Shown: positions 27,272 to 64,000 of the stretch, in pieces | Layout of the letters: every line of letters begins with the position of its first letter | Position numbering within the stretch: position 1 is the stretch's first letter | From: Sedimentisphaerales bacterium | GTDB taxonomy: Bacteria; Planctomycetota; Phycisphaerae; Sedimentisphaerales; SM23-30 | Assembly (NCBI GenBank): GCA_963666285.1 | Contig: OY762711.1 | Direction: 5' to 3' (one strand) | DNA length: 64,000 nt | Translations under genes and position numbers: made by a program | Notes under the pieces: model-generated | The model's input: only the letters and a program-made list of their open reading frames with translations | What the model was told of the DNA's origin: nothing | Database searches by the model: none

Positions 27272-27299
27272 TTATAGTTTGGAACTTTAACGAACGGAT

Positions 27300-28608
27300 A
27301 CTTCTACTGTCGAAGATCCGCCTAAAGCGGACTCTCCTGTCAACTTTCCAGCGACCTTCCATCGCTCGGCGTAGCCGTTTAAAATAGGTCGCGCAGCGAC
27401 ACCTTAATTTTTCACTTCGAATTATTCATTTTTCATTTAGCAAAGCTCGCAGCTGACTGCTGATTTCCGGTAGCCCCCGGTTTCAACCGGGGGACTAAAC
27501 AAACTCCCCATTATTTTAAAAGCATCCTCGCCGCCAGGCGATACCTTTTTTTCTTCTATCTCTTCTCATCTTTCAGATGCCTAATTTTGATATAATCTTT
27601 ACTCCCGCGTCAGCTTTAAAATAAGTCGTCCGCGAATGCGGACACCGCTTTTTTTCATCCTTTATACCTCATCCTTCAGGTGCCGTTTCACGGCACCTGT
27701 CTGGTCTGCCCACAATTCAAAAACAACAACTTACATCAATTCACGAAAAATCCCCTCCCCGCCGCACTACCTCCGCAACCCGCCTCGCACTCGTTCTTAT
27801 ATCCCAGCACTCTTCTATTTCTTACCGATTTTTAACCCATCCTTCACCCCGTCACTCTCACTTAATATGATAATTAGTCTTGCCGAACCCGTTTAAAATG
27901 AGTCGCGTAAACGACACCTTCACATCATTGGACTTGTCCAATGATGTGCCAGTGTGCGTAGCACGAATTTATCTTCCTACTGTTCTACTGCTCTCCTGTC
28001 AACTTTCCAGCGACCTTCCGTCGCTCGGCGTTAGCCGTTTAAAATAAGATGTCCGCGAAGCGGACACCTCAACTCTTACCTTTTACCTCATACCTCTTAC
28101 CTATGTTCGCGTTCCCGTCCGTATACCGCCGTATGCATTCAACGTTCCGCCGTATACTGTCCGCAGCCCGCAATTCACCGCCGCTCAAATCCATTTGCCT
28201 TTTTGCCTCCGTCCACCCGCCGCGCTGACCCGTACATATCCCGCACACCTCCCGTCACCCATCAATTAGCCGCGAGCGGTAGCGAGCAACCTTCCCTGGT
28301 ATCTGAAACCTGATACCTGACCACTGATTTTCTTGAAATAATCACCGCGTTTTTACAACCACCAAATCGCGAAAATCCAAAATCTTCAAAATTTTTATCC
28401 CGCTTACCCCCAACGCCTTACAAACTTCCAAGCCAACCAGCCCGCCCAAAAAATCAGCGCACTTTTGACATACCATCCAACAGTAGAGAGCTGACAAAAA
28501 AGCGAACCAACAAAAAAACAGCTCTCGATAAAACATAACAACGACGAAAACTTCGTCTTTTATATATATTTTGCTCTATTACAAATAAATATTTGACTCA
28601 ATTTGTCA
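27300..28608 (+). repeat. Modular non-coding repeat element, copy 1 (C-rich strand is +)
   Basis: Inverted homology to 60280-61676; five (CCG)TTTAAAA-hairpin-ACC(T) units at about 27375, 27515, 27614, 27889 and 28035; heptamer runs; internal duplication 27332-27386 vs 27991-28046. Outer boundary approximate. Confidence 0.9.
27921..27948. repeat. 28-bp palindrome CACATCATTGGAC-TT-GTCCAATGATGTG
   Basis: Perfect 13-bp arms; identical inverted copies at 61136-61163 and 61540-61567. Confidence 0.9.
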
Positions 28609-60279: not shown

Positions 60280-61676
60280 TGACAAATCGTTTTATATTCA
60301 ATTATTCAAAGAGCAAAATTTATTATTAAGACGAAGTTTTCGTCGTTGTTAAGTTTTAGAGAGAGCTGATTTTTATTGGTTCTCTTTTTTTGTTAGCTCT
60401 CTACTGTTGGATGGTATGTCGCAAGTGCGCTGATTTTTTGGGCGGGATGGTTGGTTTGGAAGCTTGTAAGGTGTTGGGGGTAAAGTGGATAATAATTTTG
60501 GAGAATTTGGATTTTCGCGATTTGGTGGTTGTAAAAACGCGGTGATTTTTTCGAGAAAATCAGTGGTCAGGTATCAGGTTTCAGATGCCAGGGAAGGTTG
60601 CTCGCTACCGCTCGCGGGTAATTGATGGGGGACGGAGGGAGTGCGGCATATATACGGGACATCGCGGCGGTAGGACGGCGGCGAAAAGGGAAACGGATTT
60701 GAGCGGCGGCGAATTGCGGGCTGCGGACAGTATACGGCGGAACGTTGAATGGGTGCGGCGGTATACGGACGGGAACGAAGCGGAGATGGGAAGGCAGGTA
60801 AAAAGTAATAGGTAAAAGGTAAGAGTTGAGGTGTCTTGTACCGTACGGTACAAGACCTTATTTTAAACGGCTGGCGGCGAACGACCAAAGGTCGTTAGAG
60901 ATTAGAGCAGATGAGCAGTAGAACAGGCAATCAGCTACGAGCAACGAGCGGCCAGCGGCCAGCAAGCAGCCAAGCTGCTAGAGATTAGAGGAGATGAGCA
61001 GCTAAACAGCAACGAGCGACCAGCGGCCAGCGGCCAGCAAGCAGCCAAGCTGCTAGAGATTAGAGGAGATGAGCAGCTAAACAGCAACGAGCGACCAGCG
61101 GCCAGTGAAGAGGAAATACGTGCTACGCACTGGGGCACATCATTGGACAAGTCCAATGATGTGAAGGTGTCGCTTACGCGACCTTTTTTAAACGGTTACG
61201 GGGTGTGAAGGAGGGGTAAAAAAACGGAATGAAATAGAAGAGTGGGGGGATATAAGGAAGAGTGCATGGCGGGTTTGGGAAAGTGTGCGGCGGTGAGGGG
61301 ATTTTGCGAGAATTGTTGTAAGTTATTGTTTTTTGATTGTGGGCGGACCAGAAAATAAGTGATGAGTGAAGAGTTAATAGTGAAGAATTGAGGTGTTCGC
61401 CTAACGGCTCATGACTTGTTTTAAAGCTGATGCCGAACGACCAAAGGTCGTTAGAGATTAGAGCAGGTGAGCAGTTGAACAGGCAATCAGCTACGAGCTA
61501 CGAGCGGCCAGTACATTAACTTCGTGCTGCGCACTGGGGCACATCATTGGACAAGTCCAATGATGTGAAGGTATCGCCTGGCGGCGATGGTATTTTTGTG
61601 TACTGATGCGAAAGTGTGGGTGATTTGCGAAAAGGTGTCTCTACGCGACAGCTAGGGTATGTTCATTTAAACGGTA
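60280..61676 (-). repeat. Modular non-coding repeat element, copy 2 (inverted relative to copy 1)
   Basis: Reverse complement aligns with 27300-28608; units at 60829-60870, 61165-61195, 61391-61430, 61569-61598 and 61633-61674; internal duplications 60877-60955 vs 61433-61511 and 61119-61168 vs 61523-61572. Confidence 0.9.
60948..61105. repeat. 75-bp tandem duplication (two full units plus a partial unit)
   Basis: Identical units begin at 60948 and 61023 (GCGGCCAGCGGCCAGCAAGCAGCCAAGCTGCTAGAG...). Confidence 0.9.
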
Positions 61677-61779
61677 CAGCTATTTGGGATAAAATACCCA
61701 GATTTGACAGTAATATATATGTTGCAGGTAATGATAGACTATTATGTTGAGTTGAAAATCAGAAATTTAGCTGATAGGC

Positions 61780-61844: not shown

Positions 61845-64000
61845 TTATTCGCCGTAAACAGCCGGGTTTGTTCCGTCAGAAACCTCAGTCCCGTCGTTAG
61901 TGCCGTCTTCGTCTGTGTCTGCTTTGTCGGCTCTCAGGTGGTTTTCGTATTCATAGAGGTTGGTCAGTCCGTCACCATCAAGGTCGCCCAGACTGTCGTC
62001 TATAAGCGGGTTCATGCCGCAGGCAATTTCATAGCCGTCAGAAATGGTATCACCATCGGTATCAGATACAAGCGGGTTGGAATCTGTTTGAGAATTATAA
62101 GATATTGTGCCGTCAAAAGCCACTTCTTCATAGTCGGTGGCACCGTCACTATCGGTATCGGTTTCGTCAACAGATGTGCCAAGCACTATTTCCAGATGGT
62201 CGGCCAGGCCATCGCCATCGGTATCAGTTGCAGCGAAATCAGCGGCGGTGTAGGCGGTTGTAGTGTAATCATCTGTGTCAGAGATAACTGTGCCGGCATT
62301 CGGGTCTAGTACCTGGATATCAGTTATAGTGAATGGCCCATCCGTGGCGTTATCAAATATCTTTTCTGATGAAAATTCCAGTGTAACGGTTATTTGGCCG
62401 GTTCCAGCCATCCAGTTTTGGGCGATAGCGTCCAGATCGGCAAGGTCAACTGTGCCGGACTCATCCAGATCGTAAGCATTACATGGGTAATCTTCGACCA
62501 GGCAGTGAATCTCGCCCCAGAAGTTTGCCAATAGAGCAAAGTCGATCAGGTTGACTTCTTTATCGCCATTAAAATCACCGCTGACTGATTCAAAAGTAAC
62601 AACTTCAGAACCATCGGTATCGATAATATTGCCGGAGCTGTCGGTAAGATTACCTATAACCATAAAGTCAGTTGGTTCTGATATGTCAACAGGGATGGTA
62701 ACTTGCAAAGATTCATATATGCCGTCATTGTCTGAATCGATAGCTGAATCAGACATTCCGCCGGAAATGTTAATGTTGGCAGAAGATATAGTAAAGCTGT
62801 CGAAGGCGGTTCTCTGGAAAGAGCCGTCTGCTGCATTTGCGGTTAATGTGACATAGTATGTGCCGATTTGAGTAGTATCGGCAAAGTCCAGCATGAAAAC
62901 GCCGTCACCTGCGGCAGAATCGCTGCCTGTACCATCGTCGGTTAATGTGTATTGTGTTGTGGTTTGGTCAGGGTATGTAATGTCTGCGATAATTTCAACA
63001 TCTGTAATTGCAGTATCATTGTCAGAGACGGAAGCATAGACGGTAATATTGTCATTTACATTTGCCCACTGGTCTGAGTATATTGTCATTGAGATAGTTT
63101 CATCATCGAATACTGTGATGCCGTAGTTTTGTTTATCTTCGGAATCTGTGGAGAACGATGCTGTCCATGGGCCTGACTGAGGGTTTGTAATCGTGTAGTT
63201 GAAATAGCCATCATCTGAAGCTGAATATGTGACAGAAGAATCTGAGGTTTCCGGAGTGTAAACTGTGCCATCCGGAGCAGACAAATTCAATAGATTTATC
63301 GCAGCTGTATCTGAAGCATAAGCAAATACTTTAAGGGTTTCACAGGTTGCGATACTGAATTGGTATTCAACCGGTGAACTGCTGTCGAAAATACCGCTGT
63401 CAGAGCCGATAAAACAAGTATTTTGTGATGTTTCTTCCTCTGTGTCTGTAGTTGATAACGCTAAAGGTTCAATTGAAGAAGTAGAAGTGCTGGAAGATAT
63501 ATCTAGCCATTCAATTATTTTATTTAGAACATTTGGATGTCTGAAGCATGAATAATGATCTAATCCGGAATTATAAAAAGAGCAAATATCAACGGCCTGA
63601 TATTCATGTTTCTTCTCTAGTTTGTCATTTTTCCTATCATAGTACCAGCCTAAGATAACGCCTTTAGCTGAATTATAAGGAACTGCCCCATCATTTTCAG
63701 AATAATGGCTCATACCGCTTTTTGCATATAGTAAAGCACCTGAGGCAGTTAAGCTCAATGTATGAAGAACATTTTGATTTTTTTTACTGTATGTTGCATA
63801 AATAGGCAAATCGCATTTTATTCTTTGGTTAAAACTTTCCAGATAATCAGTAGCCAGGCATTGTGTTGCTTCATTATCTTTTTTGGGGTTAAATTCTGAA
63901 AGAGGACTTCCTGTGTGTGGTGTTTGAGCACAAAATATTTTCAATACTCTATCCTGATGGTCATAGGCATATTGGCGAGAGATCAATCCTCCCATGCTGT
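61845..64000 (-). CDS. Alpha/beta-hydrolase (lipase/esterase-like) with Ig-like domains, an internal dockerin and Ca-binding DxDxDG repeats; 5' end outside the window
   Basis: The frame is open to the window edge and reads (H)SMGGL, a nucleophile elbow; TPHTGS, NDGAVP; LTDDGTGSDSAAGDGVF; GDFNGDKEVNLIDF...DLDESGTVDLADL; DTDGDG repeats. Confidence 0.82.
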   Translation of the reverse strand, partial: SMGGLISRQYAYDHQDRVLKIFCAQTPHTGSPLSEFNPKKDNEATQCLATDYLESFNQRIKCDLPIYATYSKKNQNVLHTLSLTASGALLYAKSGMSHYSENDGAVPYNSAKGVILGWYYDRKNDKLEKKHEYQAVDICSFYNSGLDHYSCFRHPNVLNKIIEWLDISSSTSTSSIEPLALSTTDTEEETSQNTCFIGSDSGIFDSSSPVEYQFSIATCETLKVFAYASDTAAINLLNLSAPDGTVYTPETSDSSVTYSASDDGYFNYTITNPQSGPWTASFSTDSEDKQNYGITVFDDETISMTIYSDQWANVNDNITVYASVSDNDTAITDVEIIADITYPDQTTTQYTLTDDGTGSDSAAGDGVFMLDFADTTQIGTYYVTLTANAADGSFQRTAFDSFTISSANINISGGMSDSAIDSDNDGIYESLQVTIPVDISEPTDFMVIGNLTDSSGNIIDTDGSEVVTFESVSGDFNGDKEVNLIDFALLANFWGEIHCLVEDYPCNAYDLDESGTVDLADLDAIAQNWMAGTGQITVTLEFSSEKIFDNATDGPFTITDIQVLDPNAGTVISDTDDYTTTAYTAADFAATDTDGDGLADHLEIVLGTSVDETDTDSDGATDYEEVAFDGTISYNSQTDSNPLVSDTDGDTISDGYEIACGMNPLIDDSLGDLDGDGLTNLYEYENHLRADKADTDEDGTNDGTEVSDGTNPAVYGE

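Follow-up and report, generated by a model that had tools for sequence, protein, structure and literature searches.

The genome analyzed here carries an oriented repeat unit, or "arm", that consists of an A/T run (TTAAA), a short spacer, a hairpin "cap", an invariant ACACC and, usually, a G-poor run of heptamers. Arms occur dispersed in intergenic regions, in head-to-tail series within 30 composites, and inside a 190-bp MITE. Six to nine families supply their caps, which recur and shift from one set of flanks to another; the composite backbone is a mosaic on a fine scale. In other bacteria, arms form inverted doublets, some of which enclose a four-helix-bundle gene. On balance, we favor the explanation that arms are selfish, oriented, single-stranded DNA (ssDNA) hairpin repeats that spread by hitch-hiking, exchange short tracts with one another, occasionally gain insertions at cap loops or feet, and are acted on by a putative hairpin-directed factor.

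The window, i.e., the whole 64-kb stretch of DNA that was analyzed, had been described in a sequence-only reading as containing a repeat at 27375..28069 with five hairpins on a shared scaffold, and a second, reverse-complement copy. These are 2 of 30 copies (one truncated) of a ~1.3-kb composite on contig C1 of this genome. The sequence at 27375..28069 is indeed repeated, but the composite runs beyond it, to about 28595; the hairpin scaffolds are the variable part of this lineage-specific composite. The five hairpins claimed for copy 1, starting at 27388, 27528, 27628, 27902, and 28051, are all present, as are the five of copy 2 on the minus strand (61649-61637, 61587-61574, 61412-61395, within 61192-61166, and 60856-60833). 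The scaffold is degenerate in some units, as had been noticed, namely those at 27528, 61587, and 61649. The features of the window are as follows:

27290..28595, plus strand: composite copy 1, flanked by a GH38 and a GH109 gene; the left end is ragged among copies.
27310..27331, plus strand: 22-nt insert with a TCCGC..GCGGA hairpin, from sequence and alignment; the module recurs without the insert at junction 27990/27991.
27378..27440, plus strand: unit 1, with TTTAAAA, cap H1 at 27388-27400 (GCA loop), ACACC, and a degenerate heptamer run; a small GTA-loop hairpin lies immediately upstream.
27514..27546, plus strand: unit 2, with a degenerate scaffold, cap TCGCC-GCCA-GGCGA at 27528-27541, then ACCT.
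27615..27697, plus strand: unit 3, with cap H2 at 27628-27643, ACACC, a short pyrimidine run, and a distal hairpin at 27679-27697.
27700..27880, plus strand: conserved backbone block B, present in 22 of 27 aligned copies.
27892..27948, plus strand: unit 4, with cap H1 carrying one broken pair (27902-27915), then ACACC and, where heptamers would otherwise stand, a 28-nt palindrome module (27921-27948).
28038..28101, plus strand: unit 5, with cap H2 at 28051-28065 (GAA loop), ACACC, and a CTCTTAC-type heptamer run; in other copies this slot holds H1, H2, H3, H5b, or H6.
28105..28595, plus strand: conserved backbone block A, a recombinational mosaic without a conserved ORF or covarying fold; it holds another tandem-G.A hairpin with ACC and heptamers at 28272-28330.
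60290..61700, minus strand: composite copy 2, with five caps, the last of which (60856-60833) is H6.
From 61352 and 60771-60329, minus strand: block B and block A, respectively, of the copy 2 backbone.

The genes adjoining copy 1 encode unrelated sugar enzymes. Positions 1061-60189 of the window form a carbohydrate-active gene cluster (GH38, GH109, sulfatase, GH127, GH43), and a gene for a dockerin/TSP3 protein lies at 61845-63995. Block B of both copies contains a putative IHF-site-like 13-mer (27721-27733, plus strand; 61319-61331, minus strand). Searches for homologs of the composite returned one weak 32-nt match among 40 relatives, none in 250 genomes of the class, none in phages, none in metagenome contigs (searched with the exact motif), and one 35-nt match in a plasmid collection. 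No target duplication or terminal inverted repeat was found for the composite, whose left ends could not be fixed. Block A was rejected as a pseudogene (no codon periodicity, at 0.124/0.128/0.112, and stops in all frames) and as a structured RNA (no covarying fold and few double-sided changes). In the composite copy at C1 ~2347229, block A is bracketed by inverted arms from both sides, with an inserted transposase gene adjacent.

The motif is not isolated, as the genome scan proposed in the sequence-only reading makes clear: nine cap-family patterns identify 286 anchors on contig C1, compared with 12 on the reversed sequence, and the unit is one arm of a cross-phylum heptamer/hairpin repeat family. 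Within the 64-kb window, the strict scaffold (TTTAAA-N-hairpin-ACACC) has five matches, against none in each of 100 dinucleotide shuffles. A permissive scan of the contig for hairpins with an upstream TTAAA-type word and ACC after them returned 173, versus 17 and 27 in two shuffles; GNA or GNNA loops occur in 103 of the 173, versus 2 and 2. Removing 27 hairpins that had no family-like stem or no close anchor left a curated set of 146 units. An early pattern, with 82 matches versus 36–44 in shuffled sequence, was judged too loose.

Excess 7-periodicity follows the anchor in 77 of the 146 units at a lenient cut, compared with 38 of 2000 intergenic controls, and 39 units pass a strict cut. The heptamer runs keep identical ordered variants between copies, which means that they are copied as blocks rather than freshly written. 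A second small GNA/GNNA hairpin lies closely upstream in 61 units. Standalone units have no replication-strand bias (56:44), and a search of this genome for ORFs bracketed by arrays found no consistent gene family. Short-read contigs from one sample match 27388-27612 without difference and at single-copy depth, so this combination of modules is not an assembly artifact. No short-read contig spanned the whole composite, and no switching at one locus was observed among contigs, which cannot tell alleles from paralogs.

The six main cap families have 46, 30, 25, 13, 12, and 11 copies. Exchange of whole hairpins between matching flanks, the central claim of the sequence-only reading, is visible in the alignment at the unit 5 slot (28051 vs 60833-60856) and in many further copies. 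Eight copies with identical upstream and downstream modules carry different caps (H2 in four, H6 in three, H1 in one); nine copies with a second flank set carry H5 (five), H1 (two), H3, and H6. Linkage between cap and flank is partly retained, with NMI of 0.57 and 0.42 versus 0.16 and 0.12 when permuted. Exchange is independent of backbone ancestry: at the slot next to block A, the cap changes 17 times on the block A tree of 27 copies, compared with a shuffled mean of 17.0, this tree being weakly resolved (2 of 24 branches starred).

Is this exchange targeted to hairpins, as had been suggested? Caps do swap between flanks, but the process is not hairpin-specific, since backbone without hairpins likewise recombines, at intervals of a few tens of bases. 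In hairpin-free block A, four-gamete incompatibility, a value open to inflation by recurrent mutation, is 0.22 at ≤5 nt, 0.55 at 11–20 nt, 0.72 at 21–40 nt, and 0.89 at 161–320 nt. Distances in block A and block B are uncorrelated (rho 0.10), and the closest pair of block A sequences is 8.6% apart, yet alleles are common to copies. Because the hairpin-free backbone is also a mosaic of ~20–40-nt tracts, cap swapping looks like general short-tract exchange, and we infer that it is mostly the visible case of such exchange among paralogs.

The swapped hairpins had been called unrelated. This is true of the long caps, H5 and H6, which are 7–12 edits from all other caps, but not of the GTCGC and GTCCGC caps (H1 and H2; 3 edits) or the two GTGAG families (H3 and H4; 4 edits). 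These short distances, the single cluster that takes in 119 of 146 units at 4 edits, and the occurrence of hybrid caps are what one would expect if, without any exchange, point mutation and hairpin-templated repair had turned a single stem into all of the caps. Gradual point mutation, which the earlier reading had named as grounds for its own rejection, nonetheless accounts for only part of the cap alphabet. In addition to the distance of H5 and H6 from the rest, the same cap families occur in different slots and host elements, identical caps sit on unrelated flanks, and cap type ignores the backbone tree. An origin of all caps by mutation alone is, in our judgment, highly improbable.

Selection for structure, also proposed from the sequence, is supported by the stems. 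Among H1-like units picked by sequence distance alone, 35 are unchanged and 13 have one broken pair, which is the outermost in 8; of 18 doubly changed stems, 8 have pairing fully restored by compensation, although these comprise only three distinct stems (chance ~4%, by our own arithmetic).

RNA prefers GNRA loops. The 146 units have GNA (30), GNYA (57), GNRA (15), GNAB (21), or other (23) loops, with no case of the reverse-strand form, and a C-G pair closes all 102 GNA/GNNA loops. When only the 59 distinct caps are counted, 8 are GNA, 16 GNYA, and 3 GNRA; among cross-taxon loops, 56 of 123 fit no class. The d(GNA) loop with C:G closure is described as unusually stable in DNA in the accessible part of PMC3201870, where a cited title names cGNNAg and cGNABg as stable DNA tetraloops. 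The cGNAg and cGNYAg loops are suggestive of single-stranded DNA rather than RNA; because the copies are related, this evidence is suggestive and not statistical proof. Folding energies from ViennaRNA do not discriminate between the two (37:5 vs 33:8).

The loops bear on whether arms are RNA elements kept by the host, serving as terminators, RNase III or stability signals, or translation signals. The location of the arms is in keeping with such a role: 141 of the 146 units are intergenic by approximate gene calls and, between co-directional genes, the pyrimidine strand with its DNA-type loops is antisense in 47 of 65 pairs (a sense-orientation bias of 47:18). The purine strand of the unit reads heptamers-AGGTG-hairpin-TTTTAAA. 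Inverted arms form rRNA intervening sequences (IVS), and the accessible text of PMC4990558 has RNase III excising heptamer-bearing IVS; for TAACTGA repeats, MacGregor proposes translational regulation (PMC4679880, in part). However, GNYA and GNA loops outnumber GNRA loops 87:15, and the transcribed strand mostly reads their complements. The Rfam and covariance checks suggested earlier gave no Rfam match in the window or in six MITE loci and no covarying fold in block A, the part tested; 20 cross-taxon loci matched only 23S rRNA and, below threshold, miRNA/sRNA families. The arms are also patchy in relatives, with the pattern in 8 of 25 genomes of the family and 5 of 91 clostridial genomes. We therefore regard a host RNA function as quite unlikely.

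Beyond exchange, there are genuine small insertions, which supports the earlier suggestion that tiny hairpins insert at targeted positions. First, a 22–23-nt hairpin insert lies within the loops of at least three cap types (41 matches: 19, 10, and 6, plus 6 unclassified), and the window contains a filled/empty pair (27310-27331 vs 27990). Second, a 27–29-nt hairpin has 79 copies, 63 of them directly before ACACC, behind four cap types. Caps are also portable beyond the TTAAA/ACACC scaffold: in the congener G001, three tRNA-Asn-derived repeats that adjoin small GIY-YIG genes have had 6 nt replaced by cap H5, and two other caps occur in a comparable tRNA-derived repeat of this genome (G000). The latter repeat is tRNA-like, lacks the scaffold, and follows a small GIY-YIG gene (91 aa, at C1:2936076); the closest of the 146 curated units is 42 kb from this gene. 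Two loci, L311 (G001:C1:2016800-2018700) and L310, consist of tRNA-Asn and then tandem small GIY-YIG genes split by tRNA-derived repeats, in which a hairpin cap takes the place of part of the anticodon arm.

Such insertions could be the work of a dedicated site-specific nuclease or recombinase that cuts the cap foot and writes in another cap, the scaffold being a cassette acceptor. Four observations argue for this: ACC at the foot is constant (ACC being part of the search pattern) and is followed by T in 82% of the 146 units; the 27–29-nt hairpin lies just before ACACC behind four cap types; caps replace a fixed stretch of tRNA-derived repeats near small GIY-YIG genes in both G001 and G000; and the anchor is conserved across phyla. 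Against it, the hairpin-free backbone is equally mosaic, a single insert origin followed by ordinary recombination could yield the same foot pattern, and no candidate enzyme tracks arms among the genomes compared. A dedicated cassette enzyme is thus unlikely. A wider reading is possible, if doubtful: a cross-phylum system in which DNA hairpins of 13–29 nt would be autonomous-looking mobile caps, written at ACACC, and also into other hairpins and tRNA-derived repeats, by a trans enzyme that recognizes the fold. In the same doubtful reading, the candidate enzyme would be a small GIY-YIG nuclease, or a reverse transcriptase (RT) together with an Avd-like four-helix-bundle protein.

No mobilizing enzyme was found among the candidates tested, which were RAYT, DUF559, GxxExxY, a DGR-type RT, and a 504-aa protein. 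The genome has five Y1 matches, four IS200-like and one RAYT-like that scores below the NCBIfam cut-off; RAYT was rejected with the RAYT-like gene, at C1:3258144, lying 101 kb from the nearest of the 146 units and no Y1 match in the clostridial genomes G071 and G086. DUF559 was rejected with matches in none of five genomes; in G071 and G086, which are incomplete, there was no DUF559 match, and the only GIY-YIG proteins were large ones. GxxExxY has no match in this genome. There are four RVT_1 matches, and group II intron maturases, not DGR-type RTs, are the best-scoring class for both RT types tested. The 504-aa protein, which falls in unnamed clusters in the Atlas, has no Pfam or NCBIfam match and occurs in none of five other arm-bearing genomes. 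It is encoded by an IS-like element with three copies (L309:307-1821; C1 ~4257800, ~4636500, ~5957100), each in the same heptamer/hairpin module. The genome listing includes 20 tyrosine recombinase matches, and a search for IS91-type Y2 proteins was uninformative, being silent in the controls. Two group II intron RT genes, at C1:911203 and 5396784 (L287), belong to elements within or beside heptamer/arm modules.

Arms do have vehicles. A ~190-bp MITE family has 150 cores and 100 full copies (e.g., C1 579236, 583648, and 324871; L299-L304). Its terminal repeats are imperfect, and 40 copies show a 5-bp duplication; 69 of the 100 full copies follow the leading strand. The interior holds an arm in 43 full copies and an alternative hairpin module in 49, so that carriage inside the MITE is one way in which arms multiply. 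Judging from its ends, which match those of the MITE, a 1427-bp IS701-family element (8 copies, 7 complete, with 5-bp duplications; C1:67160, L308:168-1460) is the likely partner.

Arms also receive visitors. Of 13 left ends of an IS3-family element, 6 fall at the anchor by rule (7 by eye) and 10 lie behind a heptamer run. All insertions at or next to the GGTG anchor share one orientation, and those that retain both ends have 3-bp duplications (C1:422897, 781472, 1431485, 3047324, 4688708, 5851639, and 342279). Copies of three IS110-family elements often lie within AACCACGAA-type repeat modules beside arms (C1:714619, 3961308, 4025431, 5746293, 3804322, and others).

The H1 scaffold occurs in 8 of 25 genomes of the family, compared with one match in the control. 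A scan of species genomes found at least 120 scaffold loci, including in Oscillospiraceae, other Clostridia, Patescibacteria, Methylococcaceae, and Campylobacter. Among the matches listed, a heptamer run follows the scaffold in 49 of 120, and many others resemble chance matches, terminators, or other repeats. In Clostridia, the scaffold frequently makes up the right-hand arm of an inverted doublet, and in a Falkowbacteria contig (L058, 700-1600), several inverted heptamer/hairpin doublets interrupt the 23S rRNA gene. The 73 tested ORFs that adjoin cross-taxon loci are miscellaneous host genes. At four Methylococcaceae loci (L042, L063, L077, L084), the scaffold sits on another upstream repeat family, without heptamer runs; the PF05635 profile had no match in the one Methylococcaceae genome tested.

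PF05635 describes the four-helix-bundle genes with which arms are sometimes associated. Inverted flanks occur at 36 of 63 PF05635 genes, against 1 of 63 and 1 of 200 for two control sets, and a recognizable cap-ACC arm, by a narrow pattern, at 8 of 63, versus 5 of 200. In this genome, single arms precede two four-helix-bundle genes (TIGR02436; C1:5096210 and C1:8296). One arm-plus-four-helix-bundle-gene combination precedes ybaB, at a site that is no more than a short gap in 3 of 3 congeners; the gene upstream of this insertion is presumably dnaX. At C1:45310-46043, there are tandem near-identical four-helix-bundle genes and a truncated third copy, with 11-nt repeats between them, and the nine PF05635 genes that score above cut-off all fall in the interval from 5.09 Mb to 46 kb, which is origin-proximal as judged by GC skew. 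The PF05635 gene is present in all 8 pattern-positive genomes of the family but also in 12 of 17 pattern-negative genomes, so that co-occurrence does not discriminate. Of 91 clostridial genomes, 5 have the pattern, 13 a PF05635 gene, and 2 both; the arm-rich G071 and G086 (10 and 18 arms; incomplete) have no PF05635 match.

These genes raise the idea of an RNA route, in which an RT and an Avd-like four-helix-bundle protein would make cDNA of arm transcripts by template switching, to be pasted at ACACC. The TIGR02436 family, which arms flank, is one that we take to be related to the Avd of DGRs. The orientation of the pyrimidine strand with DNA-type loops (antisense in the 47 of 65 gene pairs, and to 23S rRNA in L058) would fit, as would block A copies that share alleles without ever being closer than 8.6%. 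On the other side are the group II intron type of both RT proteins tested, DNA-type loops on both strands of doublets, heptamer runs copied as ordered blocks rather than newly written, and the absence of a PF05635 match from the two arm-rich, incomplete clostridial genomes. Taken together, an RNA route is decidedly unlikely.

In the openly accessible literature, we found no description of the TTAAA-cap-ACACC scaffold. The unit works like BIME, REPIN, SDR, and NTS repeats but does not belong to REP or SRM repeats by the tests that define them. For the Nostoc small dispersed repeats (SDR), Elhai et al. in 2008 reportedly described structured units of 20–30 nt (21–27 nt when more narrowly defined), with compensatory changes, that are precisely inserted; they are said to occur among heptamer repeats, in mini-transposons/MITEs, and nested in one another. 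By this description, the 22–23-nt and 27–29-nt inserts resemble SDRs, whereas the lineage differs, and a fixed TTAAA...ACACC scaffold with whole-cap exchange is not known to be a feature of SDRs. SDRs receive a one-line mention in the accessible parts of PMC2884548 and PMC4390886.

Like REP, BIME, and REPIN sequences, as portrayed in parts of PMC2817692, PMC3116915, and PMC3184786, arms are extragenic, GC-rich hairpins in more than 100 copies that form mosaic clusters and inverted doublets. Inverted copies bracket a small gene in both, and both are preferred IS targets (IS621 and IS1397, the latter targeting REPs according to the accessible text of PMC3184786, for those repeats; IS3-family here). 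Identity with a known REP/BIME family, which the sequence-only reading held would refute it, was not found, as arms have no REP head and no cognate RAYT. By base counts, no GT(A/G)G head precedes the stem, the fixed word lying 3′ of it instead, and the top GTAG/GGAG-headed 16-mers of the genome are not these caps. Unlike in BIMEs, the composites of this genome string their units in one orientation instead of alternately, the units carry heptamer runs, and whole caps swap; the bracketed gene here encodes a four-helix-bundle protein rather than a Y1 transposase.

Three further systems share parts of the design. NTS/SRM repeats (Chenal 2025, PMC11893778, in the part accessible) are also oriented hairpins with a conserved flank and a free loop, in hundreds of copies; NTS acts as ssDNA on one strand only and a small gene is flanked by the repeats, traits that the arms may share. 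There, the SsnA GIY-YIG ssDNA nuclease needs the stem sequence, whereas stems here are exchangeable; none of the 146 units overlaps the SRM motif, which has 18 matches genome-wide versus 9, 15, and 12 in shuffled sequence. The 23S rRNA IVS of the S23p/PF05635 type, known from Coxiella (PMC4990558, in part), combines a four-helix-bundle gene, terminal inverted repeats, and heptamers, and the scaffold itself lies in inserts of the Falkowbacteria 23S gene (L058). By contrast, the window units are outside rRNA, gene-less, and co-oriented, with no PF05635 gene in the window copies, and the same part of PMC4990558 describes no hairpin cap or ACACC anchor for the Coxiella IVS. Lastly, TAACTGA repeats (MacGregor 2015, PMC4679880, likewise in part) are intergenic, oriented heptamer runs with a patchy distribution across phyla; no hairpin anchor was found in that text, whereas here many heptamers hang on one anchor.

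In the explanation that we favor, i.e., selfish ssDNA-hairpin arms, caps would swap mainly through short-tract conversion or template switching among hundreds of paralogs, with crossovers probably placed in the common TTAAA and GACACC anchors, and true insertion of 22–29-nt hairpins at the cap loop or foot would be occasional. The cap would act as a folded ssDNA hairpin, given its cGNAg/cGNNAg loops and tandem G.A pairs, and a putative hairpin-directed trans factor may nick or bind it, by analogy with REP/RAYT and NTS/Ssn. Exposure of the cap as ssDNA would also explain why insertion sequences land there. Overall, the arms make most sense as selfish, BIME-like repeat DNA and not as a host regulatory switch.

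The origin and movement of very small structured bacterial repeats is a long-standing open question. This genome offers clean material, with ~290 anchors, filled/empty pairs, and an anchor kept as far as Clostridia and Patescibacteria, together with the IS701 MITE as a vehicle, an anchor-targeting IS3 element, and two candidate proteins that can be put to the test. The unit links heptamer repeats, rRNA intervening sequences, and nested mini-hairpins, and offers oligo substrates for assays. If swapping is paralog conversion only, the arms are a well-documented new BIME-like family of moderate interest. If the reading of caps as mobile DNA is true, it would supply both an enzyme and a rule of targeting for the smallest mobile DNA of bacteria, and would assign PF05635 a function.
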